A stretch of 63,799 bases of DNA, filler included, from 11 parts of 11 records of this genome joined end to end with filler, not necessarily neighbours in it; one strand, 5' to 3'; counted from the whole stretch's first letter, positions 2,251 through 56,236 are shown. The notes: generated from the sequence alone by a model not told the origin. Numbers and translations: made by a program.

Positions 2251-2266
2251 CTCAACCTGGGTACTG
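2251..2266 (+). promoter_or_regulatory. Conserved promoter-region motif copy (CTCAACCTGGGTACTG)
   Basis: Lies between divergent genes (ATG 2018 on minus, ATG 2486 on plus). One mismatch to the AACCTGGGCAC core seen exactly at four other intergenic sites. Confidence 0.6.
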
Positions 2267-2485
2267 CGGATGGCACGAAAACCTCGTTGAAAATGGATGG
2301 AGGAGTTAGTCGGAATTATGTACACAGTATGGAAAAGTCAAACATACACAGGCAACAACTACGAGTTGCGCGTGCATGCAATAATCGGAATCACAAATCA
2401 CGTGCATCCGCTATATCGAAATGCATATGATATATATCGCCGTTTACGATTACGCACGCTCGCCACGCCGCGCAAGGGCAGCGCG

Positions 2486-4509
2486 ATGAGGTTTCCTCTG
2501 CGATGGCTGCTGATGCTTGGGTTGAGGCACTCCGCTGCGCAGGCACCAACCGGTCTGACACAAGCACAAGCAATGGTGCGCAGCGTCTGACGTCCAAATG
2601 CATATGAGTGCAAGAACATCAAGTCACGGGACAACGAAATCCGTCTGTCCGGACTTCGTGTGGTTCTCAGGTTTCGTCCGTCCTTGTTCTGTGTGCGCTG
2701 CAGCTGCTTGATCGGTGGCGGCCCATCGCAGCAGCGCGGCATGTAGCTGCTACACCGCAGCTACTGCGAGAGTTGGACAGTCCTGCATTCCGCAGCAACT
2801 TCAGTGCACTCCTGCCACTGGGATCCTCCGACGTAGCTCTGCCTGCACGGCAGCTGCTTGCACGCGCTGAGGCTCAGTGGAACGTGGCCGAGATTGTGCA
2901 CAACTTTGACCCTCGCCCAGAACCCACTTCGATGAGCTGTGTGAACTGCGTCGATCCAGATCTCGCGATCGCCAGAAACACGACGTTCTGGGTCAATGAC
3001 TGGGAAATGCTGTTGCTGGCCAACACCTCCGATCCGCCGTCGCACCGTGAGCTCCCTACTCGAGACGGATGGCCTACGTTCGCCGCCGATATCGTCTCCG
3101 GCTGGCTAGGTGGTGCGTCTATTGCCGAGGCATGGGGTGGCTATCCTGCGTTCACGGGGCCATCATTCGAAGCCGGATTTGACGGCTGGCCTGCAACGCT
3201 ATCAGAAGCTGCAGAACGGCCGATCTACACGGTGGTCAATCAACGCCGTTCCGCGGCTGGTGCAACATACTTTGGCCCGGTCGGCATCGTTTTCAACCGC
3301 ACGTGGGCACGGCAGAGAACGTTGGTTGCTGCGTTGGACACGGGAGAGATGGAAGGGCGCTGCAACACAACCTGGCAAGAAGCTATGTGTGGTGCTCCAG
3401 CTGCCCAATTCAACAGCACTGTGTGCCATGAACGGACATGGTTCTGCGGTTGGGATGCCACAGCAAGACGTTGTGGCGTTGGAGCAGCCAAGCAGCCCGT
3501 CGCTCCTCTGTGCACGGCGGCGGAAGATGCGGGGATGGGTGAGCTGCGAGAGCAATTGCGGTTCAAATGGATTTTGTTGTCAGACAGGTCAGACCTAATC
3601 ACATGGCCTTCGTGCGTGTGCGCATAGGGCTGGTTGGTGCGTGGAATCATCTGGTTCTTCCCAACGCAATGATGTTCGACGGAATGAATGTTGCTAGGTC
3701 TCTTGTAAGTGACTCAACGTGTCGACTGGTCGCGCCGCGTCTTGTTGCTCCGTACTAGCATTATCGGATTGCATAAATCTATCAAACACACTGCTAACTG
3801 GTTAAGCGATTTCCACTGCACAACAGGCGGTACTGTTTGCTCGGAGTCTTGGGCATCCTGTCAACGTGCGCTCTACACGTGTTGTGTGATCTACCGTTCA
3901 CGGTAGTACGCTCTTGTCACTGCGCTGTGAAGCTATGTGGAGGGAACCGAATCATCAATGACCCAGTCTGACTAGAATGCTCATTGGATTGTTGCGTTCC
4001 AGGTGACTACATTTGATCTGTTTCACTACTGGGAGGGCCAGGTGATGGGTAGCACTGCAGGCCGCGCTTACAGCTCGGATGCCATCAGCTTCCTCATTGT
4101 TGGCTTTGAGCTGTTTGGCACCAGTCTTGGCGAAGAGACACGATCATGGGCACTGCAATTTGGCTGGCCTGTGTTGTGGTGCGAGCCGCTGCCTTCAGAG
4201 GGGCATCAGTGGGCGCGGAATGAACTAGGCGCGATCGACGGCCGCGTGCTCGACTTGCCGTCCATGCACACGGTGAACCGCACTGCGACACCGCACGAGC
4301 TCGCATCATTTGACAAGCTATGGAAAGAAGTGGGAAGTGTTGCAGGAACTCTGAGTGACAGTCAACTTAGAGCGTTCTGGAAGCAGCTGGAGGGCATTGT
4401 AGGGCTGGAAAAGCGTGTGGAAAGTTTGCGCGCAGGGCGATGTGAGGCGCATGAAGGGTGCCTAGGCATCTCAGCAGACGGCGATTGTGTGTGCAAGCGC
4501 TACATGTGA
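2486..4509 (+). CDS. Secreted protein with DUF3626-like domain (5 exons)
   Basis: Exons 2486-2575, 2704-3538, 3628-3704, 3827-3865 and 4003-4509 join in frame via GT-AG introns. Signal-peptide-like N-terminus MRFPLRWLLMLGLRHSAA. Motifs IVHNFDP, AERPIYTVVN..AGATYFG..IVF..RT..DTG and YWEGQVMG. Confidence 0.65.
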
Positions 4510-4650
4510 AGAATGGGGCACTGGCGACCGTTGTATGTAAAATCTTGAAATGCAGACTTTGATGCAAAAATATTTCACACAGACATCCATCCACCTACAA
4601 CGCTGCGCCCACCACTGGCAGCGCAATGATTGTCTAGTCATTGAAGTAAG

Positions 4651-5899
4651 TCAGTCACCCCATGGCGCGTGCGTGGCTGCCTCCGGTCCTGGGCTCCCTT
4701 CTGTATCGCTTGAGTAAAACCAGCTTGAGTCGAAGACAAAATCTAGCTCGCCATTCTTTCCACCGTGCCCGGCGGCCAAGTGCAGGCTGCAAAAGTCTGC
4801 GTGGCCACCTGGGGCAGCCTCGTCAGCCCTGCCCCCGGGCTTGTGGAACATTTCATAGCTGGGCCACAGATGGCGGCTTTTAGAGTGCTGGCAATACGAA
4901 ATGTCAGTGAAGTATCGCGGCTGGCTGCCCTCACCACCAGGCATCGCACGGCGCCCATGCACCAGCGCGGAGTTCACAATAACCACGCTGCCTGGCGGAA
5001 GTGGAATTTCAGAGCCAAAGCTCAACGAACCCGGCAATGGTTTTTGCTGGAAGAGGTCGCCCATTAAATTCTTATCCATCACTGTCTTGTGCGAACCTGG
5101 CAGCAGAATCAGGTCGCCGATCTCACCTGTCAAGCCGTGCAGGTATACAAAAGCGTGGCACATGAGCAGCCTCCTCTCAACCTGCGGGTATGCCTCATAA
5201 TCATGGTGCCTGGGACACAGCATGCATGGGGCGAGCGTCAGTGGTGATACTGGCAGCTGCGCGCGGATGTCTGCGACTGCAATGCAATATGTGAAGGTTG
5301 GTAGGGTATTACCAATTCGAACCCGTATCGCCTGGCAAAGACCGTAGCGCGTGCTGGTGATGTAGCGAGAACGTAGGTAGCGCGTCCGGGTTCACATTAC
5401 AGTTGGCTTCCATCAACGCAGCTATGTGTGCAACCAGCGGCGGGTAGGTCGAGAGTGCGCCAAGTACGGGCGACTCCGTCGGCTGGGATAGGCGTGCGGT
5501 CGAGCTTGCCTCGAACTCCCCGGTCTCTGACCCATGCCACTCGGAGAAGCCAGCCTGCTGAATGTAGTCGTTGAAATCCCGCTCAAGCGCGGCGATGTGT
5601 TCGCCCGATAGCAGTGCGGGACAAACCGTATATCCTTCCTCGTGGAACGCTGCAACCGCTTGCACGCGGTCTAAGTCGGCAGTTCTGTCTCCTTCCGCAC
5701 TGCTAGTGGCTGCTGCTCCACATGCACTCATGCCACCTTCCACGCTGCTAGTGGCTGCTGCTCCACATGCAGCACGCACGGAGGATCGCGGACCTGCTGG
5801 CACCCGCGGCTGAGATGACTCGATGTACACATCTCTCAGGGCAGTGGAGCAACACCTCAAACGGCGGGCCGCTGATCTGCCTATCGGCGTGTGCGACAT
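4651..5899 (-). CDS. Phytanoyl-CoA dioxygenase (PhyH)-family Fe(II)/2OG oxygenase
   Basis: Intron 5210-5312 joins W|HHD to give the HxD motif. Also F.EEGY.V, LILLPGSHK, PGSVVIVNSALVHGR and a distal R. N-terminus resembles a transit peptide. Confidence 0.85.
5690..5771. repeat. Short tandem duplication (45-nt period) within PhyH coding sequence
   Basis: tgctagtggctgctgctccacatgca occurs twice and encodes ACGAAATSS twice. Confidence 0.8.
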
Positions 5900-6096
5900 G
5901 AGCCTGGACCCTGCCGCCTCCGGTGGTCGCCAGCGTGGCTCAAAGGCGCCGCGCGCGCGGCGCATTCGTCATTATTTTTGTCTCCGCCGTGTATCCCCTA
6001 CCGTACTATATATACCTTTACCTACGCGATACGACATACGAGTTTCTCATACATCCAGTGTCGACCTGTACCTTTGAAGGTCCTTAGAAGACCATC

Positions 6097-6112
6097 CTGT
6101 GCCCAGGTTGAG
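6097..6112 (-). promoter_or_regulatory. Conserved promoter-region motif copy (CTCAACCTGGGCACAG)
   Basis: Reverse complement of ctgtgcccaggttgag. Lies between divergent PhyH (ATG 5899) and GH28 (ATG 6333). Confidence 0.65.
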
Positions 6113-6332
6113 GGAACACGGCGCGGCGTTCAACACGCGCGCACGCGCGCCGCGGGCGGAGCGCGGGAGATCAACATCTCTATCATCTACCGCTCCATAT
6201 CATAAGGTACAGTAGAGCGCGCGCGATCGCGAGGCGCGCGCCCGCGCGGCGCCGCGCCGCGTGGCGGGCGCGCGCTGGACTGAACCACGCCTCCTCGCTC
6301 GCCGTACGCAGTCGGTCCGTGGTCTCTGCCAT

Positions 6333-8004
6333 ATGCTCGCACACTCACTTACGCTGTTCGTCGCGGTCGCTGGGTGGCGTGCCCATCCGTCGTATGGCGC
6401 ATTACCACCTGGGCCTGGACCGTTCGGCTCCGATGTCATGCCCCAGCCCGTTCCAGGGGCAGCGCGCGCTCTGAGCGAAAATGGGTGGAAAGAGGGGAAG
6501 CTCTGTGATGTGACCAAGCCCCCGTACAGATTCCGATGAAGTGTCTTGGAATTTTGTGCGAATGCTTAGGGTGCTGCTCATGCTTTTTGTTCACTGACGG
6601 CGCAGGTACTCGGTGGTGAGTGGCAAGAACTCGACCGCAATCCTGCAGCGCGCCATCGACGATTGCGGTGACCTTCCCGGGGGAGGGACTGTGCTCGTAC
6701 CGTCCGGCCTCACGCTGCTCACAGGCAGTGTATTCATGCGGTCCAACCTCACGTTACGGGTGGAGATCGGCGCCACGCTGCTGGGAACTGCCACCGGAGA
6801 CACGAAAACGCCGGAGTCGATTGACGACGCCCCTATGGTATACGCTCGACGCAACTGCTACATGACTGACACCCACGCAGGGTTTATCAATGGGGCGAAG
6901 TGCTTGCGCAAGAAGTCGCCTTTGGTCGGCTGGGACGACTGTGCTGAGTGGGGGAAGTTGCACAACGTGGTTATTGAGGGTGGTGGCACACTCGATGCGC
7001 AAGCCAGCGACTGGTACGAAGTATGGGGCAAAAAGTACCCCAAACTTCAGAATCTGGGCCGGCCAATGATGTTGGACCTAATGTGGGTGAATGGCCTGAC
7101 CATCCGCGACATGATCATTCGTAGGCCAGGGTACTGGACTGTCCACCCAACGTTCTCCAACAACGTCCGGGTTACTGGCAACGACATCCTGACGACGGGC
7201 TCAAATACGGACGGATGCGACCCCGATAGCTCGTGGAACGTCTACATTGCGAACAACACGTTCAGCACAGGTGATGACTGTATTGCGATCAAGTCAGGCA
7301 AGGATTGGTCCGGCCGTATGGTGAATATTAGCACGACAAACGTGTTGGCCGAGCAGAACTATTTCCTCAAAGGTCATGGGGTTTCGATCGGTAATCATTC
7401 ACTAATCGTTAGCAGCATCTACGGCGCGTTAATGCAAGTCTAACAATAGCTGTGGCGCGCCAATGAAACAGGCTCAGAAACATCAGGATGGATTCGAAAT
7501 GTCACGATCCGCGATTCGAAGCTTCACGGTACAAACTTGGCGGTTCGCATCAAGACAATGCGGGGCAGGGGCGGTGGCGTCGAAGACGTGCTGTATGAGA
7601 ACCTGGAGGGCTCTGTGATTGCAGGGATACAGCTGACCGAGAACTACGCAAAGGGGACCAAACCAACGAACGCTTCTGCGACCCCAGGTGTGTAGTGCAA
7701 CGAAGGCCTTCCAAGGAGAGCTTTTAAACGTGATTGTTCTTGCTATGCTGTGCGATGGTGGTCAGCGTTGCGTCGGATTACATTGCGGAATATCGCGGTC
7801 ACTACCACCAAGGGCGAAATTTCGGAGACCGGTCAAGCCAGGGAGGACGGCGGAAGCCTGTGGTTGCAGTGCGACGGCATTCCAGAAAGTTTGATTACTG
7901 GTATCACTTTCGAGAACGTGACAGTACACGGCTCCAGCAAGCAGGAGTGTACAGCGTGCAAGATAGATGCAGACGCTACGTCTAAGCCGCAGCCAAAATG
8001 TTAA
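6333..8004 (+). CDS. Glycoside hydrolase family 28 (polygalacturonase-like), secreted
   Basis: Exons 6333-6523, 6606-7390, 7472-7687 and 7766-8004. GH28 catalytic motifs NTDG, GDDCIAIKSG, GHGVSIG|SE and VRIK(T). Signal peptide present. Confidence 0.93.
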
Positions 8005-8118
8005 GCGAATTCGGACGCGCCCCACAAGCTCTCGCCCACCGTGTATCAGACTAGCAGAGAGTGTGGCGAACACTGTAGATGAGTATGGCGACGTGTGAAT
8101 AGCATTGCAACACATTCA

Positions 8119-11063: not shown

Positions 11064-11382
11064 TTCGTCATACTCAGTGAAATAGCAAAACTATCCAATG
11101 TAATGAACCCGCGCGCAGCAGCTGCAGGGGTCCGACTTCGACGCTGAGCACGGCACTGCCGCGTCAACGAACGAACGCACGCACGCCGGCGCGCTGTTCG
11201 TTCCGCGCCATCTCTAGCTATATAGTAAGGGCCCGCCGGCGTGCGGCGATAGATCGATGCGCGACCACATATATAAATATATGCGCAGGCACGCGTGCAT
11301 GTATTGAATATCATACCTGTACACGAACCTACTAGTACAGCTGTACCGGTACGTGTAGGATCCTACGGCGCTCTCGTCATCG

Positions 11383-11398
11383 CTCGAGCTGGGTACTC
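11383..11398 (+). promoter_or_regulatory. Degenerate promoter-region motif copy (CTCGAGCTGGGTACTC)
   Basis: Lies between divergent genes. Several mismatches to consensus, so it may be a chance match. Confidence 0.3.
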
Positions 11399-11873
11399 CG
11401 GGCCTGGAGTAACCAATCTGATTTATATATAATCTCGAAATCTACTGAGCATTTGTTCGAATTCATTGACATATCTTTGTATCAGAACAAATGCGAATCA
11501 TCATTCTAGCAAGTACGAAATTCACTGTCTGGTTGTCCGTTCGTCTCGACTGCCGGAAACTGGTAATCGACGAATGGGAAAATCCGTTGCAGAATGTGCA
11601 CAATCTTCAGTTTGCAAATGCAGAAAAAATACTCTCGCAGAGTGTGTACACACAGCATTTGGTACAGGCACGCGTGTACACCTGCCTGTACGAAATGTAG
11701 ATATGTATAGGTAATATATAGCGCACGCGCGTGGGACTCCCGGCGACGACGCGCGCGTGCCGGCCGCACGCGTGGCGCGACGGACGGGACGGAGACGCAG
11801 GAGGTGTACGGTGCTTCTGTCCGCTAGCCGGGTGAGTGACGGAGAGATGTACTGCGGTACACCGCCGACCAGG

Positions 11874-12329: not shown

Positions 12330-12429
12330 NNNNNNNNNNNNNNNNNNNNNNNNNNNNNNNNNNNNNNNNNNNNTTAATTAATTAANNNNNNNNNNNNNNN
12401 NNNNNNNNNNNNNNNNNNNNNNNNNNNNN
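12330..12429. other. Artificial contig linker
   Basis: N44-TTAATTAATTAA-N44, which places stops in all six frames. Confidence 0.98.
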
Positions 12430-12513
12430 CTCTGCTGACCGTTGAGGCGGCGCGGCGTGCGGCGTTGAGGCGGCACGTTCCCCCGCTGTCCAACCAGGCG
12501 TGCAGCTCTGGTG

Positions 12514-15623: not shown

Positions 15624-18600
15624 CTACCGCAAAGACCAAGGCTGCGGTACTGCACGACCCCATACTCCGTGTTTAGGGTGTATCCGCTTTTTCTTGGCCC
15701 ATTGAGCGTACCAGCGCGCCATCTTTGCGTTTGCATCACCCACTGCTGCATCATGTGCAGCTTCATCGTCCGTTGACAGCGACGCTGTAGACGCGCCTGG
15801 ATACCATCCAGCTACTTGCACAGCAGTAGACACCTCGTCAATGCATGCAGCTAACACTACCGGCCGCGGAGCAAGTGCCCCCACACCAGCAATTCGGCGG
15901 CGCTCTCTTTCTTGTAGCTCGAGGTGCAGATCTGCTCGCGCTGCATCCATTCTCGCATCTAAGTTATCACGTGTGACGTCGTACATAGCCCCATCGGCAG
16001 AACTCCATTCTCGTATTCCCACTGCATCATCCAACTGGCTCCATGTTCGCTTGGTCGGCTGCCGCGCACCACCACCAGCATCGACACCAGTGTTGCCTGC
16101 TCTTTGGGCGCCTGTGACTCGGTTGCTGTGATCATCTGTCGCATGTGACTTAGCAGGGTTGAGCTCACCTGATCTGAGGTGGCCGTCCCGCGCCAGCTGT
16201 AGTCGAATATCAATGTATGGGAAGTCTTGATCGACCAGTCGCTCGCGGATCAGCTTCATACTACTGATGTCGCCGCCATCCGCTTGCACACTGTCCACTG
16301 CGGCACGGACAGCTTTTACATCCTCGGACCGCAGACGCGGTAGCCGGTCGAACTCTAGAGGCCACCCATTCATGTACACATCGAGTAGGTAGCCGATAAC
16401 GGTGTCAGTCTTGACCGTCTTTGCACTGGCAACCTCATCAACCGAAAGCCCAGCTTCTGTGAACATTCGGTACGCCTCTTGCTTCGTGGGCCCGATCTTC
16501 GGCAGTGTTCGAGCAACAGTCTTTGGTTCTGGGGGCGCCAGATTGCGATCGTGCAATCCTCGCCTAGCACAAAACGACTCTATGACGTCGAACAGCTGCT
16601 GTCCATACTTAGCCAGTCTCTCCTCGCCTACTCCATCAATCTCACCTAGCTTTTCAACCGTAGACGGACGATATTTCGCAAATCTATGCAAGGTCTCCTC
16701 ACCACATACAATGTAAGGAGCAATCTCCGCCGCTTTCGCAAGGTCATCGCGCTCCAGCTTCAACTCCTTGAAAAGGGCATCCTCGTGCCTTGCCCTTGCG
16801 TTCGATACCCTTGCTGTCTGCACACGATCTGAGAATCCCTTTGTGCCACCAATCGCTGTGTTTGCACGAGGGTTCGACCAGCCGTACAGGTGCTTGTCCA
16901 ATGCCGCTGCAACATCTGCCGGTAGACCTGACATCGCAGTGCCTGGTAGCTTCATCGCCGGGTCTTTAAGCAGCTGCTCGCCCTTTAGCCCAATCGCATA
17001 TGTGACAAATGGTCTAATGTTGGACCCATACCCAACTCCTGCCATTGACGCGTTCCGCTTTAGTACGTTGTCTCCTACGAGGACCTGGGCTAAGCCTTTC
17101 CAAAACACTGCTGGGAGTTCTTTGCCCTTGCCAAATATTGGAAATTTGGTCAGCTTTGCCATGCCGAACCGGTCCACGAGTCCCGTGGCGCGTGAACCTC
17201 GCAGAACGTCCACTGGAACGTTCAGTCCGTATCTCTGTCCAGTCTGTTGAATTGCGGCCAAGAGTTGTCGCACATACGGCGTCAAATCAATCAGCTCTGA
17301 AGCTGCGCCCGTCTCGGTGCACACACGACGACAGCAGTTGTCACAACGTGAGCCACACGGTGTCACGTGGGCTTCCCCGAAATGCTCACACAGTAACCCG
17401 TGGCGACATGAAGCAGAGTTGTTGAGGTAAGATTCCAGCTGTTGACGGGAAATCATGAATTGCTGTTTTGTACTTTCCTCGGACATATCTCGCAAGTAGA
17501 AGTCAAACAAAGCCAAGTCCGCACGTGACCAGAACAAGGTACAGCTTGCTAAGCCACCATCACGGCCCGCTCGACCGCTTTCTTGGTAGTATGCTTCGAG
17601 CGTCTTCGGCGGACCGTAGTGGATGATCTGCCGTACGTCCGGCTTGTCGATCCCCAGGCCATAGGCAACTGTGGCGACGACGACTGGAGATTGATCGCGC
17701 ATGAAAGCAGCATGTGCCTTTTCCCGCGCAGAGTTGCGCATGGAACCATTGTAACCGACAGCATTGACTTTGCGAAGGAGCAAGAACTTCAGAACCTTAT
17801 CGGCAAGTTTCACTGTTGGCACATAGATGATCGTGGCGCCTTCGTTGCAACCAGCACCTGTGAGCAGCGGGAGCAGGTCGGTTTCCATTTGATCTTTCAT
17901 TTGAACCGAATACGATAGATTTGGCCGCGCAAAGGAGGTTAGCGTAACCTCGGCGGAGCTCATTGCGAGCTGCCTACAGATGTCCGCACGCACGTCACAT
18001 GTCGCCGTCGCTGTTAGTGCCATGCGAGGAACGTTCGCGAGGTGTGTGGACAAAGTTGGGCCGATCTGTCTGTACGCTGGACGGAAGTCGTGACCCCATT
18101 CCGACACACAGTGCGCCTCATCCACCGCTACGAGAACAATATGTGATGTCCCACCCCGACGATGCAGTCGTGCCAGCCGCTCCGCGAAGGATATCAACTT
18201 TTCTGGGGTGAGATAGACAAGCTCATACTCTCCAGCTGCGACACGGTCGTCGACTGTGGTATCGGTCTGCGCGGAGCCGAGAAAGCAGGCCCGAACACCC
18301 ATCGCACGCATCTTTTCCACCTGATCGTGCATGAGCGAGATGAGCGGCGACACGATGATTGCACAGCCGAGCCCGAGCAGTCCCGGTAATTGGTAGCAAA
18401 TGCTCTTGCCTGCACCCGTGGCCATCACCACCAGATGGTCGCGCCCCTCGAGCACTCCACGAACCACACGCTCCTGCTCAGGACGGAAGTGGCGATAGCC
18501 GAGACGCCGCTGCATCACCGCAAGCACATCCTCTTTTGTTGCAGCGAGCGGCGAGCGCCGCGCTGTTTGGCAAGGGCCGCACGGGTTTCCCGCGGCAGAG

Positions 18601-18973
18601 TCCCGGTACGCAGTGATTGCGGAGCGCAGCGCATCGTTCGGACGGAGGGCTTTAGACGCGAGCGGCACACGCGTGGTCGGGCTGACCGTGTCGGAAAGCA
18701 TCCATCGCTGCGCCGAACGTGCATGGAACACCGAATCGTAGAGCCACGGCACACACACACGCACAGCGTGTGAGCGAGCAGGCGAGTCGCGCACTGCAGC
18801 ACCAAAGAGGCGTGCGAGCGGAGAGGGGCTCGGGGCGTCACCTCGATAGCAGCACGCTCGTAGTTGACGCCGTCGCTTGCCAACACGGGGTCAGCCATCA
18901 GCGTCTTCCCGATCGGGCAGAGGAACACCGCGGGCGGTGCTTGCCCAACGACACCTGCTGGCTCGCCAGGCAT
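15624..18973 (-). CDS. U-box fused RecQ-family DNA helicase (RQC, HRDC, HTH)
   Basis: Intron 18708-18841 joins the U-box FLCPIGKTLMADPVLASDGVNYERAAIE|RWMLSDTVSPTTRVPL..LRPNDALRSAI. RecQ motifs ATGAGKS, VDEAHCVSEWGHDFRPAY, TATA and YYQESGRAGRDG. Also a Zn CR..C..CDNC motif, an HRDC domain and a C-terminal HTH. True start is uncertain. Confidence 0.92.
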
Positions 18974-23270: not shown

Positions 23271-23312
23271 GGAAATAATAGGGTATTTCTAGAGCTACCC
23301 TATACCGTGGCT

Positions 23313-29647: not shown

Positions 29648-32065
29648 CTAGCACGAGGACACAGGTAGCTGCGTCTCCACCAAGCAACCTGGTTCGCCAT
29701 AGGCCACGCCACATCCTTCTAGGGAGAGAGGCAAGCACTCCAAGTCGACACGTTGGTGCAGCAGCTCCAACGGCTCAATCACCATCAAGTCTTCCAACAT
29801 TTGCCCGCTCGGGACAGAATTAGGCATAGGCGAACTGGTTAGCCTGCGCATGAGGGGCCACACAAGCCTGAAGAACCACGGACTGCGCACCATACTGACA
29901 CGTGACACAGCAAACCAGGGCACTGCCTCAGCCCAGTCTGAGAACATTTGGCTCGCAGCTGCGTCCATGTTTTGCGACTCGATACATGCGCCGAAGCCAT
30001 CATCAATAACATGGATTCCCACTTCGAGCGCGTCAGGGTAGGTGGCACAGAGGGAACCGTAAACCAGATGCATTGCCTGGAACATTTCCTTGCTCGTGAA
30101 GATTGTGCCAGTCCAGCCTTCCACGCCATCGTGCAACACCTTCATGCCTGAGCGAAAGATGACAATATAACTCCCAGCCTTATTCTTTTGGCCGGTACCT
30201 GCTCAGGGCAACGCACGTGTTTTCAACTAGCGGAACCAGGCTGCGGTCAACTTGCATTTTGCGTGATGATGCGTCCCCGTTTTCCGCATCTAATGTTGAT
30301 CGGACTAGGTACAGTACCACGCCCCAGATTGCAAAATTGCCTGGACGAACCAACCCAGACGGTCAGACTCTTTCACCGAACAAACAAGCAAGAGGGCGGA
30401 TTGGAGTGGCAGGGATACAAGCTGCATGCCTGTGAGAGCGTGACCTGGGCCCACCTGCATGCGTTTCGAGCTCGGCTGCCCCTCCGAAACGATGTCGTAC
30501 TTATCGCGCCACTGCATGTACTTGCCAAGCAGCTCGGCAGCTAGCCCCACGTTACCGCCGCGCGCCGTGAGGCATGAGGCTGCCCACTCCGGCCGGACCG
30601 TCTCGGGCCGCTCTGCCGCTGAATCTTGGAACAACTCCGCGTGCAATTCTAAGCACTCGCGGACTGAGTTACCGGCTGGCAGTGACGACCGACCGGTCGG
30701 GGAGTACGACGTAGGCAAGGCCTGCCCGTGACCGCGGCCCTCGCGCGCCGGCGGCGTCAGATTAAGCTCGCCGACCGGAGATGCTTCTACGCCGATCGAC
30801 AGGTTGCGCATTACTTCGGCGACCGAATCTACAACCCCCTCCACCTCCGCTCGATCGACTGTGGGGTCGTGCAAAGCTACAGACTCCAACGCCTGCCGCG
30901 CCCATACAACCTCCATCCCGTTGTTGTCCCGGGCACTGCCCTCTGGCTGTGGTGGTGTCTGCGCCCTCTCGAGCATCCAGGAAGATCCATCTTCGTCCGC
31001 ATGTAGGCTACCTCCAACGCTCTCCAGCTCCAACAAGTCCCAACTAGTGTCCGAACCCGGATCGAGCGCGTCGAATTCGTCGCCAAATGGGTCGAATGGG
31101 CCAAACTGGACCGCGTTCATTCCACTGTCGTCGGTCTGCCTCGGATCCCAGTCAGTATCGAGCTCCGGATCAGGAGTGTCAGATTCTCCACTCACGGGCC
31201 ACGGTCTAGTCGCATCGACGGTGTTGGCTGGCTCCAGATGCCGCCGCCGCTGCTGCCCCGCGCCCTGACCCTCCGGAGTCGAAGCGGTTGGTGCAGATTC
31301 CTCTGGTAGCCGCCATGGAAAGGAGCGGAGCACGTTTGCATAGAAGCCCTCGCTCGCTCGCATATCGATCGTCTCAATAGCTGTGGGCCGCATGCTCCTC
31401 CCTTCGAACAGCGAGCCACTGTTCACAGGGGTCGCTGCAGGCTGTTCCACTGCTGTGACCGCTCCAGGCGCAACGCCCTTCGGTGGCTTATCCGTGACTC
31501 CCGCGACCACGTATAGGATGACGTCGCGGTTTTCTGCCCACGTTGCGTCTGGCGACGCCCGTTTCAGGAGCGAGAAGCACATGAACTTCAGCGGCTCGCG
31601 CCCTGTGGCATCACCGCCGCGAATCACCATACCATAGCGCTTGCGCACGCCCAGATTATCCCGGTACAAGTGAAATTGACCACCGCGTCGGCCGCCTGAG
31701 AACCGCCACTTGTCGCCGCCAGGGGCGCGGCGGAGCGGTGGCCGCTCGAGGAAGACTTGCATCTTCGCGCTGTCCTCCACCACAACCGGCCGGCACCCCT
31801 CATACTCCCGCGAGTCTGTGCCCATCAGTGCACCAAGCGCAATATCCCACGCCAGGAGCGACTCATCCGGCTCGCCCGTGCTGCGTGTCGTCTCTCCTGC
31901 ATCGCCGTCCGCCCAGGAGGACCGCCCCGCGGACGGCGCTGGCAGCAGCTTCTTCTTCGCTGCAACCTGCTCCCCCTTCTGCTCCTGCTCCTCCTCATCC
32001 TCCTCCTCCTCCTCCGCAGCCACAGCGACTGTTCCAGCCTGAGTGGCCCGCTTCCGCCTCGGCAT
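29648..32065 (-). CDS. Putative CG-1/NAC-like DNA-binding domain plus acidic region plus C-terminal CRAL-TRIO domain
   Basis: C-terminal CRAL-TRIO: CLTARGGNVGLAAELLGKYMQWR, GIHVIDDG, VRSPWFFRLVWPLMR and LPLSLEG. Introns lie in ~30200-30454 with exact junctions uncertain. N-terminal basic MPRRKR and a globular domain at ~31490-31860. Confidence 0.75.
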
Positions 32066-32436: not shown

Positions 32437-32445
32437 GCGACCACT

Positions 32446-32461
32446 CAGAACCTGGGCACTC
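32446..32461 (+). promoter_or_regulatory. Conserved promoter-region motif copy (CAGAACCTGGGCACTC)
   Basis: Exact AACCTGGGCAC core, ~222 bp upstream of ATG 32683 and ~10 nt from the contig start. Confidence 0.65.
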
Positions 32462-32682
32462 CTCTCTCTCAAAATCGACTATCCAAAATAAATACGTCGT
32501 CCAGTACCTGGTAGTGAGTAGTCCCGCGGGCCCGCGCGCGCGGCTCCCGCCCGCTGCCACGAGTGCCAGGTGCCCCGCGCAGAATAACGTTCAAAACGTA
32601 CATACGCACGCGTACGCGACACTTGGCCCTCAGAACGACCCCCGCCGGCGCGGCGCCAGAGAGGACGAAAAACTGCTGGCGT

Positions 32683-34089: not shown

Positions 34090-36344
34090 TTATTTGCCCA
34101 GCAGTGGCCGCTCAGGTAGATGGCTCGCTGGTACTCGCTTAGTAGCATAAGGCACATTGCTCCGTTCTGCCATCGCCCGCCAATCCCCGCTTGCCCGCTT
34201 TTTGTAAAATTTTCCTGACCTGAGTTCTGAGTAGGCTTGACTGATCTCTGCTTGGGTGCTCATCACTATAGGTCCTCTCCAACTGATGGGCTCTTCGATG
34301 GGCATCCCAGCAAAAATCAAGACGCCGAATCCCTCGGTGGAAGTCGAAACCATCTCAAGTGCTGCTCCTACTACCACAGCCTCTCTGTCCACGATATTTG
34401 CAGCCGTGGACTTGTCGTGCGTTGGTTCTAGTGAGCCGCTGGCTACGGCGGGCACAACATCCATGTGCGCCGTTTGCTTAGGCTTCATCGCCGTGCCCCC
34501 CACTGTCCCAGTTCCTTGATAACAGTAGACAAGAACCCTCTGGGTCGCAACTGCCGGTACTTCGTAGCGGTGCGTCGAGTTCGCTCCCGGGAGCTCGCAG
34601 TCCACGATGACAAAGTCATTCCTGTTCGCACAGCAAAGGACAGCCATTTTTGTTCAAACGTCCAGACCAGGCACGTTCCTAATGCACGGAAGGAGGAGTG
34701 GTTTTGGGTTTAGGGTTTAGGTTTACCGTGGTTCAGGCTCGAACGCTCCACTGCCAATTCCCCCTACGATCCGGCTAATGCCACCACCGCTGCCAAGTTT
34801 CTCGACAATATCCTCCGGCTGGATGGTGCCGTAGGAAGGCTCCGCCATCTTCATCCCGCGCTCGAGGTTGATCCAGATCTGAAATCCCTGCGGTCGCCGA
34901 ATGGTGCGCCGAATTATGAGCCATACGAGCGTGCAGCGCAACTGCGTTGAGACGCTTTACTATATCTGGCGCGATGATCAATGACAGTTTTGGATCAAGT
35001 GGATCGTGGCCTCTGGGTGAAAGAGTGATCAGAATGATGGTGGGTGGATGTTCACACATGAGTGTTCGCATGTTCTGGGTTGCCGCCGCCCTCCGCATGC
35101 TCAATGCCACTGCCGCAACGCAACCACTGAATGCCACCGGGGCGAACAACCGCTTGATTTCCCAGGCTATCTGCGTGAGATCCACGTCCCTCTTTCATGT
35201 AAGTGATGATATCAAATCCACGATGCGGGTGCCACCCGACGATCTTCTCCGCGCGCTCTTGTGGTGGGCCTGGGTCATCCGCAACGAGCGTGTCCAGAAG
35301 CTTGCTCGGCTCACCAAAGTCGTGCATCAACAGAAATGGACTGACGTCGCGCCCATTGGGTGAGTGGTGCCCAGTAAAGGCCTCCATGACCGTGAAATCA
35401 TCGCAATTGCCAGTCGGGCAAGAAGGCTCCGCGTTGGTAAGCTTGGCGACGCGCATGATGGGAACAGCAGATGCAGTGCATAACGTCGCCGCACTGCTGT
35501 CATCTTGGGCTGGGGTCGCAGTACCGGCGATCTCGTCATCAGTCTTCACATTGCTACGTTCACGACTCGCAGAATCGCACTGCTCCTCTCCACTGGTTTG
35601 TGCCTCGCGTTTGTGTCTGATCTCGCGCTGCTGCTCTACCGTCAAGCACGTCCCAAAAAGTCTCTCGAAATACCGGGGGCTGGTGGCACTGCCGCCGCTA
35701 CCCGCTACTCCACGCTGGTCGTCACCACATCGCACACTGAACCAAGGAACACTTCCGCCACCGAGATTGCGACCGCGGAGCGTAAGGGCCACGTTTGCGG
35801 CCGCGCGTTCCTGCGACGCCGTCATCAGCGGCTTCCCACTCCCTTCGACTACCCACGATGGTCGTGGCACTCCGAGGCGCGTCAACGTAGCCGCGATCAA
35901 GACCGAATCGTTCGGATCACGCAGGTGCTCGAAATGTTCTGACAGCATCGTGAGTGCGAATTGCATGGCAGCGTCCTGATCGTGCCGCTGGGCCGTCATC
36001 AGCGCTAAATTGACGCTTTCTGTCTCGACAATCCTGCGCTTCATGCTGAATTCGATTCCCAGTTCCTTGCCCAGCTGGAATGCACGCGGCAGCTTCTCCT
36101 CAAGCAGGTATTTTGCTGTGGCTGGTTCGTACGAGTTGCAGTACTCGGTCCAGTCCATCCCCAACGTGTCGTATGTCCCGGGTGGGTCGAACTCGAAGGG
36201 CACGATCGTAACATTGAACTGCATGTATTCACGATGAGCCTTCATGGCCAGCGACAGAGATTTCATGCCGATGAACGACCACGGGCACATGAAATCGAGG
36301 ACCACGGTGACGTGCACCATACCCAGCATAGCCGCCAACCCCAT
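34090..36344 (-). CDS. DSBA/FrnE-like thioredoxin-fold domain fused to pirin
   Basis: N-terminal DFMCPWSFIG...VPFEFDP...VPWF. Pirin motifs SPFLLMHDF, HPHRGFDIITY, HADSLG, GGIQWLRCGSGIEHAE, GFQIWINL and PIEEPISWRGPIVMS. Introns 34888-35057 and 34622-34726. Confidence 0.88.
34701..34726. repeat. Degenerate TTTAGGG telomere-like repeat at an intron 5' splice site
   Basis: gttttggg tttaggg tttagg tttac, which on the minus strand reads GTAAACCTAAACCCTAAACCCAAAAC. Confidence 0.55.
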
Positions 36345-36520
36345 TGCCCGGGAGTTCGAACTGATACACTAGTAGTGACGCAGCCCCTCGCTGCGTGCAG
36401 TGGCTACAGTATCTCCTGCGGCGGCGCTCGCGTGGCCAGCTACGCTGGGGCGCGCCGCCGGCGCCAGCACCCGCAGCGCTTGTACCGCGCCCATTCATAT
36501 TTGATTTCTCCCGCCGGCGT

Positions 36521-36536
36521 AACAACCTGGGCACTG
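36521..36536 (+). promoter_or_regulatory. Conserved promoter-region motif copy (AACAACCTGGGCACTG)
   Basis: Exact core, between the divergent DsbA-pirin and PH genes. Confidence 0.65.
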
Positions 36537-37028
36537 CACCTTCTGATCGATGCCTTCGAAGTACACTATTGAATAGTAAGTAGTATATTCAGGATCCTCA
36601 TACAAGTCTAACTTACGCGAGTTGGCGGCGCGTGGCGAATTTTGCACGCCGATGCACAAGTAAGTGTGCGTGGTCGACTTCGGACTTGCAGCTAGATACG
36701 CAGAACGCTCTTGCGCGTGAGATACAGATCGATCTAGCAGAGGGCGGCCCCCGCGGACGCGACGAGGGGGGAAGTCTCAGCCGATCGCAGGGGCGCCATG
36801 CTGGGTCGCGGAGCCGGCTCCGCTAGTCGCGGGCGCTGGCTGGATGCAATCCACTCGCGCGGTCGGCCCTGCTACGTACTGTAGGTGTAGCGAGCACTCC
36901 AGTGCAGTCGCCACCAGTGCTCGGTTTGGACCCAATCTTGACTGGCCGGCCCCCTTGCGCCAGCACAGGGCCCGGCCCCTGAGCGCTGGGGGCGGCACGC
37001 GCTGCAGGCGGCAAAGCTCTCTGTTGGG

Positions 37029-38258
<1,230 letters not shown>

Positions 38259-45655: not shown

Positions 45656-45662
45656 ACTCCCA

Positions 45663-45678
45663 CTCAACCTGGGCACTG
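45663..45678 (+). promoter_or_regulatory. Conserved promoter-region motif copy (CTCAACCTGGGCACTG)
   Basis: Full consensus, ~223 bp upstream of ATG 45901 and 7 nt from the contig start. Confidence 0.65.
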
Positions 45679-45900
45679 ATGCAGTATCATCGACCGACCG
45701 CCGGCACCATATTGACCGCGCGCGTCGTCGTCAGTCCCCAGCGCAGGCAGAGGGGAGCACGCGAGGTTCGTATTCAAGTTCGTTGTTGTACACCGGTATC
45801 GATACCGCGCCTGCGCAGGTACACACGCACGCACTAACTCGCAACTCCAGCTGTGTGTAGAAGACCGCGCGACCGATCGACACGATACAGGACCGGGGCG

Positions 45901-47742: not shown

Positions 47743-47844
47743 GAGTGAGCGACCCGGGAAGGTCAGAAATCAGTTGAAGCCATTCCAGTATATTGCGTTA
47801 CTACACCTATCCATCGTTCTCTGCAGATTGGTCACACGGCCCGC

Positions 47845-48804: not shown

Positions 48805-49051
48805 CTACCGCTCAAGACGTTTGTGTCGGTACCACTACCAGCTGCCACCACGGCACGGCAGCTATAGGGAGCGCCGCGCGAGCACTCTCCACGCGTCCCG
48901 CGCGCTCGATCAACCGGCGCGCCCGGCTACGTGTGTGTACACTGTCGTGTACAGTGTACAGCTGTCGACACGCGCGTGCGTGTGTATCCTTGGAGCCGAC
49001 TTATCCTACGAACGACATTTGTTTGCATTTCCAACCCATGCGCCGGCTATT

Positions 49052-49151
49052 NNNNNNNNNNNNNNNNNNNNNNNNNNNNNNNNNNNNNNNNNNNNTTAAT
49101 TAATTAANNNNNNNNNNNNNNNNNNNNNNNNNNNNNNNNNNNNNNNNNNNN
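49052..49151. other. Artificial contig linker
   Basis: N44-TTAATTAATTAA-N44. Confidence 0.98.
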
Positions 49152-49289
49152 GGGGCTCGATTGCGGCATTCTCACAATACCACAATACACCTCAAGGCAC
49201 TAGAGTACTCGCGATCAAAACGCAACTTGTGTCACGCTCAGTGACTCACTTGCATTCTGCACTGCTGGTGCCGGTTTACAGCGTTGCTG

Positions 49290-49555
49290 GTACAGTACGG
49301 CAGTACTACTAGTAGCTAGAGTACTGTAGGAAGTTCGATTTTGTACATGATCATGTACGAACTGTACAGGCTACAGCTGTACTACTAGTACTATTCATAG
49401 TAGCTAGTATTCTCTTTACCTACTGTAGTACAGTGTGCTGGTACTACGGTACATGTATGTACTATAGATGTAGCATGGTATAGTCGTACTATCTATAGTA
49501 CCGGTACTATTCGAATATGAATAGTACATTACATACTATGAATAGTATGTGAATG
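49290..49555. repeat. AT-rich, GTAC/TAGTA-dense low-complexity region with short inverted repeats
   Basis: Examples: GTACTATTC-gaatat-GAATAGTAC (49504-49527) and ACATACTA-tgaa-TAGTATGT (49531-49550). Confidence 0.7.
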
Positions 49556-49902
49556 AAGTCAACAAAGCAGTAAGCACTGAGACGGCAGTAAGGACCGACG
49601 GGGGTACCACCAGTTTGCGGCGGTAGCAACCCTGGGGCGGCTGGGCATAAGCGAGCTCGTGCGTGGTGGAGCCGAGGGGGAAAGAGAAGGCCACGGTCTT
49701 GCGACCGATACGGGCGCAGGTCTCAGCGTCACTAGAGCACAAGGCCAGCTTAGAAGCTAGGCACGCACCAGAAAGGGATGTATGTGCTGGCGTGTGGAGC
49801 CAGCTTGTACCCCTGTTGAGGCCTCCTGCAGCTGGCGTGTGGCTGGGTGTCGCACCATATTGTGATGTGAGGGCCCTAGGTGGCCTCAGCCTCTCGGCCC
49901 AC

Positions 49903-52900: not shown

Positions 52901-53715
52901 GCCCATCTACGTGCGGTGCATGTCAGTGCACCACAACCGGCAGATCTGCTGGTGTCGAGGTGGGATATGCTGGTTGTGGCACATGGCAGAATTCAGCGGA
53001 CCCCATCTGCTACGTCGTGGACCCAGTCAACTGTCCTGCGATGACCCCATCTCGTAGCCACCCTGGCACTGGCTGGCGCTACTGTGACCCACACACTGGT
53101 GGGATGGTGAGCTGCTATGACGGGTACCAAGGTGAAGGTGAGGAGGGCGTTGATTGTGGAGGGCCGTGCGAAGCATGTCCAACCTGTGCTGACGGAGTAC
53201 AGAACGGCGATGAAGAAGGCACTGACTGTGGCGGAACCGACTGTCATCCGTGCACCCTTTCTTGCCCAGCCGGTCAACATTTTGCGCGCTCGCAATTGGC
53301 CTGCATTGACAACGATGACTGGTGCACTTTGCAATGGGGTCCCTCGTGGTTCGAGGCCATCCTAAATGTTTGCATTTGCAACAGTGGCTATAGTCCAGGT
53401 AGACGACAGGGACCTTGCGTCCCTACACAGTGCACAGACAATGTGTTTGGACAAGGTGAGGATTCGAAGGACTGCGGTGGGCCCTGCGAGCCTTGTGACC
53501 CGTGCACTTGTTCCAACACGGGCATATCGGGAGGCGTGGAGACTAGCCACATCGGTTGTGCGCACCATGTGCGGGACTACAATTACTGCTACGTTTTGCA
53601 GCCAGATCGCTGCCTGGCAGCCAACCCTATCACGATCGCTGGGGTCGCTGGAGCTGGCTGGAGGAGCTGCATTCCAGCAGTTGAGGCCGATGGAGGACCC
53701 TCACAAGGGCGCTAG
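49903..53715 (+). CDS. Large Cys-rich type II membrane/surface protein (LNR-like, ShK-like, PAN/apple-like, GCTD..A.NY, NGDExGVDCGG repeats)
   Basis: Intronless ORF with one hydrophobic anchor (FLSLCSISLIAATVASSAMGM). LNR-like GDGTCD..FAC..L..DRGDC occurs twice, and about eight (N)G.E..xDCGG.C..C repeats follow. Start codon is uncertain. Confidence 0.82.
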   Translation: MDHPTAQGDTPAIPPIYGMVGRDGLQAFAGTLRMPSGRDKAKGSVDSERSCHTPAKAAQPGGELGGDPMFSQESPGGHMASVVAGRAYAQGRTGTTVNALATAGGAQRWSTFDVEDSATTARDQEEETKRPCSATFLSLCSISLIAATVASSAMGMTGLPSLIRRDQQYGNGFGTLGMLGVKHLDYWSGSTWPDNAGNYAVSGWMPPPPPPPPLPPPVCPYDTACCEFTGGVWTIRDCDGTCVSPALWGDGTCDFRFACNELQLDRGDCRFADANGDFPPGPPPSPPQNASVPTPAPVINTPSTAQPPPSPSTTDTPPPLPTVCIDRYSNCAATVAAYTCDMDLADLGENSHELLSYACCGTCTGNGLIFQTPEPEPEPERRPETALTETCGQTSANTQYQGVQLDTILTSDLTACCHLCLLNSACMGWTQLDSQCTLFSSVDRSVMARRNAISGRNKCWIDMNEAYARCCADVGVDCGTVLPTTCSDECDDALRTFFQSCEPYSYTRLPSMFTNLVGMCQSHEHSLPGCTDPHALNYNARASVDDGSCTGVLTQHATLPLAPPPPGQFPGCPYEYCCGGASLSGWLVLDCQGNCIPIAGVFNNVCDDEFNCDTYNNDRGHCVPPADAVLPAAPTSSWDYCTVDDDQEDYCVEFVSHCNTPDIRQRCPTTCSFGSYAPECADPCRCTVNGLSGSDAVSGTGCGFFSPDLDPFCFVQDPQNCQSALPSSLLNMHVDSHVEWRYCSPTQENGFSATCFDNLQNGDETCTDGGGSCPPCACPVGDIACLCHDGMLSPGEQIVDCGGPCNPCACTFQVFGTGTPSTTDSAFAIDGDYTQIRQTNTFSSLDGTTNVTWSAGLWVISTASAGQIYSRAGASGLPPACGWRRLPYDQVVQSDLPSFGPCDGDAPQCSACIVSNGNGDPACGGPCDPCPSCWDGVRNQEEVGIDCGGPCDACAPMCSDGQMNGDEESVDCGGVCANCPTCHDGIQNQGELGVDCGGPCPSTCGACQCTTTGRSAGVEVGYAGCGTWQNSADPICYVVDPVNCPAMTPSRSHPGTGWRYCDPHTGGMVSCYDGYQGEGEEGVDCGGPCEACPTCADGVQNGDEEGTDCGGTDCHPCTLSCPAGQHFARSQLACIDNDDWCTLQWGPSWFEAILNVCICNSGYSPGRRQGPCVPTQCTDNVFGQGEDSKDCGGPCEPCDPCTCSNTGISGGVETSHIGCAHHVRDYNYCYVLQPDRCLAANPITIAGVAGAGWRSCIPAVEADGGPSQGR

Positions 53716-53977
53716 GGTGTGCATAGCCCTAGCACAGTGCCGCTTGCATAATTATGATGCTTGCAGCAACCTAGGAAGTGTGCACACTCGCATCATCGCC
53801 GGTGCTGGGCAAGTGTTCTGTTCATATCAAATCATCTACACGATTGTACTGCAGCTCTACAGTACCAAGTAGTCCAGGCATCCAATCGTGGTGTAGAGAA
53901 AATAACTCAGTTGTCGCCAGCAGGTAGAGACTGGTGTCATCTGCTCTCCCGTGGCAGCACACTACACCGCGCGCGCC

Positions 53978-55970
53978 TCATCTGACACCTCCACCGCGAT
54001 AACCCATGTGATGACCTCGGCCTCGGCCTCGGCCTCGGCCGCCTCCTCTACCTCTTCCTGTGGCTCCTCGCCCATCATCCTGGTCGTTGTTCACCGGATT
54101 CGAAACACTAGCGTAGTCTGCATGCTGGTGAGCATAGCCGTATTCCCCCGTAGCTCCGGCTGCGACGTTCGCGTAGGGCGCCTGCCCAGCTCTGTGCGTT
54201 TCCTGTCGCTGCTGTGGCTGTGACGCATTGCCGACCGCGCCGGGACCGCTAGCGACATACCTTCCTTCCGTCGCGAAGCCGGCACCAGCCCCAGCTCCGC
54301 CGCTCACAGGCTGTCCAGGAGATGGACCTGTCCGCCGCGGGAACATATCCGGGAAGCGCTTCTGTAGCTTCTGCCGAATGCGTTTCCCGTACACTGTTCG
54401 CATCAGTGCCTCTACCTGCGGCTTGATGCGCTCGCCAATCTTTAGAGCCTCCTCATCACTGCATGACTCAAGAATGCCTTGGACGACGTAGTTGCCGTAC
54501 GGATCGCCGACGAGCGACTCTAGCTGACCGGGCACCATGATCTCAAGCATGGCCACAGCGAGAGCGTCCGAGCCTGCCTTGACTACACACTTCTCGACGA
54601 CGTTTGAACCAAACTTTTCGCGAGCAAGGTCAGCAAAGTGCCCAACCATTTGGTCAACAATTGCGACCGACGATTCCTCGAAGCCAAGCTCCAGCACGTA
54701 TTGAACGATGTAGTTGCCGAATGCATCTTGGATGAGCGGGAGCGCATTCACAGCTACGCGATCTGATACCAGGCGTGCCTGCTCTTCTGTCGCGTAGTCC
54801 AGGCAGCGCTGCAGCATCGAGCAGCCATATTTGTGTCGAGCAATATCCATGATGTCAACAGTGAGTGCTTCGTAAATGAACTGGTTGTCCGCTGGCGTCA
54901 GTGTCTGCAGACAGTACTTAACAACGTGGTTGCCGTTTGGGCACTTGGTGAGCTCCACGACCTGTTCAGTGAGCTTTTGTTTCACAATCGTGATTTGTTC
55001 TTCGCTGTCGAGGCTTTCAACGAGTTTTTGGATGGTCCAGGTGCCAAATCGGCTCTTCGAAACGTCAACCAGCTGGGATGCCACTTCGCGAAGGACCTCA
55101 GTGCGCTCCGCCTCAGTACACAGCTCGACGAGCCTCCGCGTAAGATGCGAGCCGTATTTATTCATCATAACCTGTGAGAGAATGCCTTTCAACTCAAGCA
55201 AGGTCGTCTTGACGTATTCAGGTTTGCATTCGTCCAGTCGCGCCTGGAGTGCGATGCTTCCATGCTGAGTGAACGCTAGTGTCGCGATGCGCCCAACAAG
55301 CTCCTCCCATGGAACGTGCTGGGCGTCGCGCCCAAACGTGAATTGTGCGCCTTCGTCCTGATCAAACTCCTCGTAGTAGCCGTACCCGGCCCCGTACCCT
55401 CCGCGGAAGCCGCCGCGACCTCCTCCATGTCGCCTGTCACGCCGACTGTGGTATCCACGGTTGTACTGGTTGTATTGTGGATACGGAACTCCCGGCATTC
55501 CACCCATGGTGTAAATCCACCCAAACTGAGGGTGGTACGTCGGAATTGGTTGCATTGCCGATTGCTGATCGTCTGGCCCACCCGGCGGCGGTGCCATCCA
55601 TTGTCCAGCTGTGAACACGTGCGCAAAGCGCTGGGTTAACGACAGCCGCGGACCAAGAGCGACACGGGGGGGAGGAGGGGGAGGAGAGACGAATCGTGCG
55701 CTCAGAGCGACGCACTACCTGGAATGAATCCGTCCGGAGTCATCATGCCCATCATGCCCCCGGGCATCACGGGCTGAAAACCCGGTGGGGGCTGACCCTG
55801 CATCTGGTTCCACCCGGGTTGTGCCCCCGCCCCCGCTCCTGCCGCGTTCGCATCCGTACCGGCCGTGGCTCCCGACCCAGCCTGGCTGGAGCGCTCCGGC
55901 GGCCCTGCCTCCTCAGCAGCGCTCGAGGATTCTGCAGTAGCCGCAGCCACAGCCACAGCCACAGCCGCAG
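53978..55970 (-). CDS. Pumilio/PUF RNA-binding protein, 5'-truncated
   Basis: Eight PUF repeats (TQHGSIALQ, NKYGSHLTR, SRFGTWTIQ, CPNGNHVVK, HKYGCSMLQR, DAFGNYIVQY, EKFGSNVVEK, DPYGNYVVQ). RGG tail; intron at ~55609-55715. Confidence 0.93.
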
Positions 55971-56070
55971 NNNNNNNNNNNNNNNNNNNNNNNNNNNNNN
56001 NNNNNNNNNNNNNNTTAATTAATTAANNNNNNNNNNNNNNNNNNNNNNNNNNNNNNNNNNNNNNNNNNNN
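55971..56070. other. Artificial contig linker
   Basis: N44-TTAATTAATTAA-N44. Confidence 0.98.
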
Positions 56071-56220
56071 CGATCCGCACGCTACAACTGTGTAGTTCTG
56101 CAATTACAATTTCGTATACTATACAGTTGTACAGAATGTCTGCAACTACCAATTCAGAATTGATCAAGTACCAAACTGGAGCTGAATTGATCTCAGCATG
56201 ATCTGAGGAACATTTCCTGA

Positions 56221-56236
56221 GACAATCTGGGCACTG
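56221..56236 (+). promoter_or_regulatory. Conserved promoter-region motif copy (GACAATCTGGGCACTG)
   Basis: One mismatch in the core, ~134 bp upstream of ATG 56370. Confidence 0.55.

Follow-up and report, generated by a model that had tools for sequence, protein, structure and literature searches.

Sequence analysed and genes flanking the word

A stretch of DNA of 63,799 nt (hereafter the window) was examined for a recurrent 16-letter word with the consensus CTCAACCTGGGCACTG, located upstream of unrelated genes. The window consisted of 11 contigs of 3.4-12.3 kb joined by spacers of the form N/TTAATTAATTAA/N, and 62,799 bases were used for the location counts. The DNA was eukaryotic, with approximately 57% G+C, long open reading frames (ORFs) and few short GT..AG introns. 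Stretches of contig 6 were present in many seawater metagenomes and in some metatranscriptomes, and 19 of the 23 listed sequencing-run rows carried part of this contig; therefore, the window was regarded as an environmental assembly of an uncultured marine protist. A single protein search returned an identical protein in environmental data, and the named relatives (Stereomyxa, the 'Phypoly' transcriptome and Tritrichomonas) had 40-44% identity and did not place the host. The gene map was crude, with ORFs scored by codon usage and Pfam hits. The 17 5' intergenic regions delimited on this map amounted to 8,589 of the 62,799 bases (13.7%).

Six strong copies of the word were spread over four contigs (two each on contigs 1 and 6 and one each on contigs 8 and 10), and three of them were situated between head-to-head genes. 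The plus-strand copy at 2251..2266 (CTCAACCTGGGTACTG, 24.2 bits) separated a minus-strand CRAL-TRIO gene (ATG 2018) from a plus-strand ORF with an uncertain start at 2486. The minus-strand copy at 6097..6112 (CTCAACCTGGGCACAG, 25.0 bits) was found between a minus-strand PhyH-like gene (ATG 5965) and a GH28 gene (first exon 6333), and the plus-strand copy at 36521..36536 (AACAACCTGGGCACTG, 28.7 bits) between a minus-strand pirin/DSBA gene (ATG 36344) and a plus-strand PH-domain gene (ATG 37029). The remaining three copies, all on the plus strand, were positioned at or near contig starts. The copy at 32446..32461 (CAGAACCTGGGCACTC, 25.4 bits) began 9 nt into contig 6 and preceded a second PhyH-like gene (ATG 32683), whose first exon ended at GTAAGT. 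The copy at 45663..45678 (CTCAACCTGGGCACTG, the exact 16-mer, 28.2 bits) began 7 nt into contig 8, ahead of a SAP-domain protein gene (ATG 45901). The copy at 56221..56236 (GACAATCTGGGCACTG, 27.8 bits) was 150 nt from the start of contig 10 and was followed by an adenosine deaminase gene (ATG 56370).

The genes flanking the word (CRAL-TRIO, two PhyH-like, GH28, pirin/DSBA, PH-domain, SAP-domain and adenosine deaminase) were functionally unrelated according to their domain assignments, in agreement with a sequence-only reading of the window that preceded this analysis. The best identity between the two PhyH-like genes was 26% over 43 residues; hence, they were not recent duplicates and their copies of the word were independent. 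Beyond the 6099 copy, on its antisense side, a 68-codon frame at 6333-6536 (+) had a signal-peptide-like start (MLAHSLTLFVAVAG..) and was followed by a GH28 polygalacturonase-like gene at 6598-7692. It was probably the missing first exon of a gene for a secreted GH28 enzyme.

Recurrence and conservation of the word

The 11-letter core of the word, AACCTGGGCAC, had exact matches at 6099-6109 (-) and at 32449, 36524 and 45666 (+), precisely where the sequence-only reading had placed them. In 100 dinucleotide shuffles, the mean number of exact matches was 0.02, and none of the 100 reached four. When one mismatch was allowed, seven matches were obtained, compared with a shuffle mean of 1.16, and seven were reached in 0 of 100 shuffles. 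The three additions were the copies at 2254 (GGGTAC) and 56224 (AATC), both reported previously, and AACCAGGGCAC at 29913, which had been overlooked. For the consensus 16-mer with up to three mismatches, the six copies and one site in a kinesin ORF were found, against 0.94 matches expected.

A site matrix was built from the six 16-mer sites (2251, 6097 on the minus strand, 32446, 36521, 45663 and 56221). The six sites scored 24.2-28.7 bits, and the next best site in the window scored 13.9 bits. The core was nearly invariant, CA was favoured before it and TG after it, and the conserved letters thus extended beyond the 11-mer. CA stood immediately before the core in five of the six copies, and the 32449 copy had CAG in that position. 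Two further candidates were discarded on these scores. The match at 29913..29923 (+) scored 11.4 bits and lay inside a probable minus-strand coding ORF (29651-30202, with a positive coding score); as approximately one chance match was expected, it was not counted as a copy of the element. A weak copy proposed earlier at 11383..11399 (+) (CTCGAGCTGGGTAC) reached 13.9 bits, was indistinguishable from background matches in coding DNA at 13.8 and 12.4 bits, and was treated as noise.

Post hoc selection of the word was controlled for by counting any non-simple 11-mer with at least four dispersed copies in 300 simulations of the 20.4 kb called non-coding. Such a word was encountered in 1 of 300 simulations under an order-1 Markov model, in 3 of 300 under order 3 and in 20 of 300 under order 5, a model that overfits. 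The recurrence of the word was confirmed.

Location of the word in 5' intergenic regions

All six strong sites fell in 5' intergenic DNA, which made up 13.7% of the window. This result bore out the earlier description of the clear copies as gene-upstream and intergenic on four contigs, with three of them between divergent pairs, and the site scores and the location together supported the view of a short, strongly conserved, promoter-located word. The 8-mer AACCTGGG occurred five times in the 5' intergenic regions and not once in the other 54,330 bases. In an unbiased enumeration it was among the 8-mers most enriched in 5' regions, beside CpG-rich words such as CACGCGCG. The word was present in 6 of the 17 delimited 5' regions. 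It was found in three of the four head-to-head pairs contained wholly within a contig and in neither of the two 5' regions that were clearly tandem (those before 44454 and 30145), although these numbers are small. Every one of the six copies was oriented toward a downstream gene.

The surroundings were rich in G+C, and blocks of 83-97% G+C were present within 150 nt upstream in three of the four internal copies. The CpG-rich words CGCGTGC, CACGCGCG and CGCGCGTGC were also strongly enriched in 5' regions (e.g., 6113-6160, 32570-32620 and 45715-45730), with 17 occurrences of CGCGTGC in 8.6 kb of 5' regions compared with 15 in 54 kb. These words possibly represent a second promoter element or CpG-island-like promoters.

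Distances to start codons and transcript starts

The gaps separating the word from the start codons were counted between the edge of the 16-mer and the ATG. On the sense side, the gaps were 219 (2486), 131 (5965), 221 (32683), 492 (37029), 222 (45901) and 133 nt (56370). Four of the five distances proposed in the sequence-only reading (~220, ~222, ~223 and ~134) agreed with the measured values of 219, 221, 222 and 133 nt. The fifth, ~198, did not hold for the first ATG at 5965 (131 nt) and reflected the use of the second in-frame ATG, located at 5899 and 197 nt from the copy at 6099. The antisense-side gaps of the three divergent pairs were 232 (ATG 2018), 220 (6333) and 176 nt (36344), consistent with the range of ~177-233 nt suggested previously.

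The gaps clustered in two tight groups, 131/133 and 219/220/221/222 nt. In simulations, four close pairs among six sense-side gaps had p = 0.0002-0.007, depending on the range assumed, and with only the four best-supported starts the clustering had p = 0.002-0.02. Owing to the uncertain start at 2486 and the post hoc recognition of the clusters, the clustering was considered only suggestive.

Over nine intervals between the word and the start codons, no overall depletion of ATG was detected (26 observed and approximately 25.5 expected), and eight upstream ATGs followed the 2254 copy and five the 6099 copy on the sense side. The three intervals of 220-222 nt (those of 32449 and 45666 and the antisense interval of 6099) had no ATG or one touching the word; no ATG intervened in the 220 nt from the 6099 copy to 6333 or in the 221 nt from the 32446 copy to 32683. 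The upstream ATGs were mostly no more than approximately 85 nt from the word, and 46-246 ATG-free bases preceded most start codons. This layout would be compatible with transcript starts some tens of nucleotides from the word on either side. The assembled contigs of four runs aligned to contig 6 gave no trustworthy transcript starts or joints in the 5' regions. The RNA libraries covered 28 of 30 and 14 of 30 bins of contig 6, intergenic bins included, so their coverage did not mark transcribed DNA. GT-donor-like words were located 45-60 nt after several copies, yet no intron in a 5' untranslated region (5' UTR) was confirmed.

These observations bear on a rather unlikely alternative, in which the word is a core-promoter or initiator element. 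Transcription would start at the CA that precedes the core or within a few nucleotides of it; the mRNA would then carry the word at its 5' end, where it could also act as RNA. The facing of all six copies toward a downstream gene, the CA directly before the core in all copies except that at 32449, and the three intervals of 220-222 nt, which would fit 5' UTRs beginning at the word, are in keeping with this arrangement. Moreover, tight gaps between word and ATG would be natural if the word fixed the start. However, the lack of overall ATG depletion, with the upstream ATGs after the 2254 and 6099 copies, speaks against it at those two sites, and a strictly directional initiator does not explain the three sites at which one copy serves two divergent genes. 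A consensus RNA fold over the six aligned sites had 0 predicted pairs, and the window had 0 Rfam matches at the gathering score and 0 tRNAs. In addition, the sole RNA-library contig at the 32449 gene started at 32612, 163 nt past the core, although assembled contigs cannot show transcript ends.

Flanking sequence, contig ends and strain comparison

The flanks of the six copies were dissimilar in local alignment, with best scores of 9-17 compared with 8-13 for shuffled sequence and z values of at most 2.8. In ungapped register, their identity was approximately 25%, and no second conserved block was present at a fixed distance. The unit common to the copies was thus only 16-19 bp long, and with unrelated flanks on either side it has the form of a binding site rather than that of a repeat. 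A scan with the site matrix located no inverted partner near any of the six copies, no target duplication was visible at the copies, and the four internal copies were flanked on both sides by unique intergenic DNA and genes. The word can be classed neither as a dispersed repeat or a structured RNA nor as a transposon end that has a recognisable body.

An adaptor artefact was excluded, as four copies were contig-internal and an independent metagenome contig spanned the copy at 36521-36536. This contig, from run X2, matched 36505-37013 without any letter difference, the word included. In a more divergent contig from X12, there were indels at 36514, 36517 and 36523, 76 nt were skipped upstream, and no change within the word was present among the rows listed. 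Compared in this way, the strains give a weak indication of a footprint at the 36521-36536 copy.

Contigs 6 and 8 began 9 and 7 nt before the 16-mer, within the 7-10 nt stated in the sequence-only reading, and both had CCACTCA ahead of the core. The probability that at least two of the 22 contig ends would fall within 12 nt upstream of a copy was 0.0003 for random ends and 0.004 for ends confined to 5' regions. As 12 of the 22 contig ends were in 5' intergenic regions, promoters were identified as the places where the assembly breaks. Several other contig ends were microsatellites, for example (GCT)n, (CAG)n, (CTCCAG)n and (CCAT)n. Breakpoints were also present near the internal copy at 36524, where a piece from one run ended at 36513 and a piece from another started at 36505. 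There are three candidate causes for such breaks: an extended word of approximately 20 letters may be multi-copy and branch the assembly graph at small k, strains may be alike from the word onward and diverge upstream of it, or coverage may be lost in the very GC-rich upstream blocks. The order of the contigs was also considered as true adjacency, in which contigs 5, 7 and 9 would each place the 5' region of a minus-strand gene before the word-opening contigs 6, 8 and 10; this order was unsupported, and the joint of contigs 4 and 5 would connect a gene body to the start of another gene.

Two further alternatives concern these breaks. The word could be some other chromosomal signal that is situated in promoters by chance, for example a boundary element, a word recognised at replication origins or a hotspot of recombination or breakage, and this was judged quite improbable. 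A long, strongly conserved intergenic word with approximately one copy per 10 kb is in line with such a signal, as is the clustering of assembly and strain breakpoints just upstream of it. By contrast, the word was absent from the visible 3' and convergent intergenic regions, and its fixed orientation to the gene and the clustered start-codon distances point to transcription.

Slightly less credible still was the proposal, offered as an alternative in the sequence-only reading, that the word is the end of a mobile element or its preferred insertion target in promoters and that the contig breaks mark its copies. The starts of contigs 6 and 8, with their shared CCACTCA, and the near-identity of the six copies, which fits common descent, agree with this proposal. 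A short, near-identical sequence dispersed in non-coding DNA with contigs breaking beside it also resembles the terminal repeats of miniature inverted-repeat transposable elements (MITEs); unlike MITE ends, the word had no inverted partner, shared internal sequence or visible target duplication. The dissimilar flanks, the lack of RNA structure and the lack of an inverted partner therefore made a mobile element unlikely. Furthermore, the shared unit is very short, the internal copies sit in unique DNA, more than half of the contig ends were in 5' regions anyway, and the independent run contigs broke near 36505-36513 at an internal copy lacking any element. The proposal was thus weakened, and the contig starts have the more ordinary candidate causes given above.

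Searches outside the window

A metagenome scan with the exact 16-mer returned at least 118 loci, of which 102 of the listed 118 had an open frame of at least 101 codons across the match. The listed loci were mostly bacterial coding DNA, and eight of them (L039, L056, L059, L060, L064, L065, L080 and L083) were bacterial 16S rRNA genes containing the identical 16-mer within a conserved segment (..CCCCGGGCTCAACCTGGGCACTGC..). The 2254 copy (window 2246-2270) matched such a 16S gene in 21 of 22 letters. The match of the word to 16S rRNA was taken as a coincidence, and such matches swamp metagenome pattern scans with the 16-mer. The best flank matches among the listed loci (L092, L037, L056 and L032, with scores of 39-42) were no better than the match to the 16S gene, and the exact copy from the window itself did not appear among the matches listed. 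In viral contigs there were 17 single matches, a number close to that expected by chance on a rough estimate.

Two loci had a repeated arrangement of the word. L023, a marine-type contig of 1,388 nt, had two inverted copies 200 nt apart and pointing away from each other, at approximately 939-965 and 1152-1167, counted in the orientation of the word (ATCCTGGGCACTG and CTCAACCTGGGCACTG); the pair could represent a relative's bidirectional promoter or, alternatively, the two ends of a small element. L092 (616 nt) had a repeat unit of approximately 100-120 nt bounded by inverted CGTCCACTT / AAGTGGACG arms, with the word or degenerate forms of it in three successive units, and this locus was unrelated to the window beyond 23 letters.

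In the literature, the word and its reverse complement were found only inside unrelated primers and sequences among the matches listed. Judged from the papers listed, the literature searches returned nothing on promoter motifs of this lineage or on the word among bidirectional protist promoters.

The word as a probable promoter element

The word was most likely an ordinary kind of signal that is new for this organism. It is highly probable that it is a promoter element in the broad sense, with an initiator variant included. The narrower reading, that of a lineage-specific promoter element that is bound by a protein and resembles the sites of general factors, was considered probable on the basis of its sequence and location. 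An abundant sequence-specific DNA-binding protein would recognise the word, and such a factor, for instance a multi-zinc-finger or tandem Myb-type protein, may cover a long stretch of DNA. The word occupied the middle part of 5' intergenic regions, and the start codons to one side of it or to both were typically 130-230 nt away. The bound factor would open or position the promoter, often for two divergent genes, with transcripts starting perhaps some tens of nucleotides away on either side. The word would thus serve unrelated genes as a general site and not as the switch of a single pathway.

Several points weigh against this binding-site reading. There were only six sites in 63 kb, and they were near-identical without graded weaker copies, which is unusual for a transcription-factor site and also fits a recent common origin. 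Two contigs broke just upstream of the word, and a plain binding site does not predict breaks. Of the start codons, that at 2486 is uncertain and the nearest credible one for the 36524 copy was 492 nt away; the distance clusters were found post hoc. No recognisable relative of the window was present among the at least 118 listed metagenome loci, in DNA or translated comparison, save for one 34-nt low-value match. Finally, a second 11-mer, CCACCGTCGCC, also had four copies across the whole window; therefore, the count alone was not unique, whereas the location was. The chance or compositional recurrence of a GC-rich word, to which the post hoc choice of the word, this second 11-mer and the order-5 simulations lend something, can be practically dismissed in view of the shuffles, the low-order any-word controls, the confinement of all six copies to 13.7% of the DNA (0.137^6 ~ 7e-6) and the further conserved letters outside the 11-mer.

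The proposed protein-binding element was compared with known promoter systems. The sites of yeast Reb1, Abf1 and Rap1 are short oriented words in many unrelated promoters, often between divergent genes, and are thought to keep promoters nucleosome-free. The word is longer than these sites, differs in sequence and belongs to an unrelated lineage. Lineage-specific general promoter words of other protists, for example Motif 3 of Trichomonas, bound by M3BP, are single dominant short words present in many of the promoters of a compact genome, bidirectional promoters included. Such words have 6-8 letters, very short gaps and a presence in most genes, whereas the present one has 16 letters, was found in 6 of 17 5' regions and is 130-230 nt from the ATG.

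In the way it appears to work, the word also resembled the Staf/ZNF143 binding site (SBS). The SBS is an 18-bp site that occurs in many unrelated vertebrate promoters, is enriched in bidirectional ones, can drive both directions and is associated with CpG-rich DNA (PMC3082894, PMC3627581). Like the SBS, the word is long, is located in the promoters of unrelated genes and has GC-rich surroundings. An SBS requires CCCR at positions 3-6, and its position 12 is a highly conserved C (PMC3082894). When reverse-complemented, every one of the six copies carries CCCA at the corresponding place, but position 12 is A in three and T in three, with C in none of the six. Furthermore, ZNF143 sites are degenerate, whereas the six copies were near-identical. 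Membership in the Staf/ZNF143 SBS family was rejected on account of position 12. By analogy, the word appears to work like ZNF143 or yeast general-factor sites without belonging to those families.

A more specific form of the protein-binding reading was also considered, in which the word is bound by a lineage-specific 'ruler' factor that sets both divergent starts. The distance from word to ATG would then be quantised (~132 or ~220 nt, to either side), and a 19-21-letter form of the word would be abundant enough to break short-read assemblies immediately upstream of it. This form was regarded as doubtful. A description of such a fixed-geometry promoter architecture for free-living protists was not found in the literature searched.

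Almost nothing is known about transcription initiation in uncultured marine protists. A long, recognisable promoter word would show where genes begin and where bidirectional promoters lie in fragmentary assemblies and would aid gene callers in placing first exons; here, it led to the GH28 signal-peptide exon at 6333. It would also serve as bait for the binding protein. For assembly in general, the preference of breaks for promoters (12 of 22 ends), with two breaks abutting the word, is a caution.

Other features of the window

Two long minus-strand genes were recorded in the course of the analysis. The ORF at 15624-18890 (-), with 1,088 codons, had complete RecQ helicase domains and a weak N-terminal U-box hit (E = 0.0007). 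At 34093-36344 (-), a single gene seemed to fuse a DSBA-like thioredoxin domain with the N- and C-terminal cupin domains of pirin.

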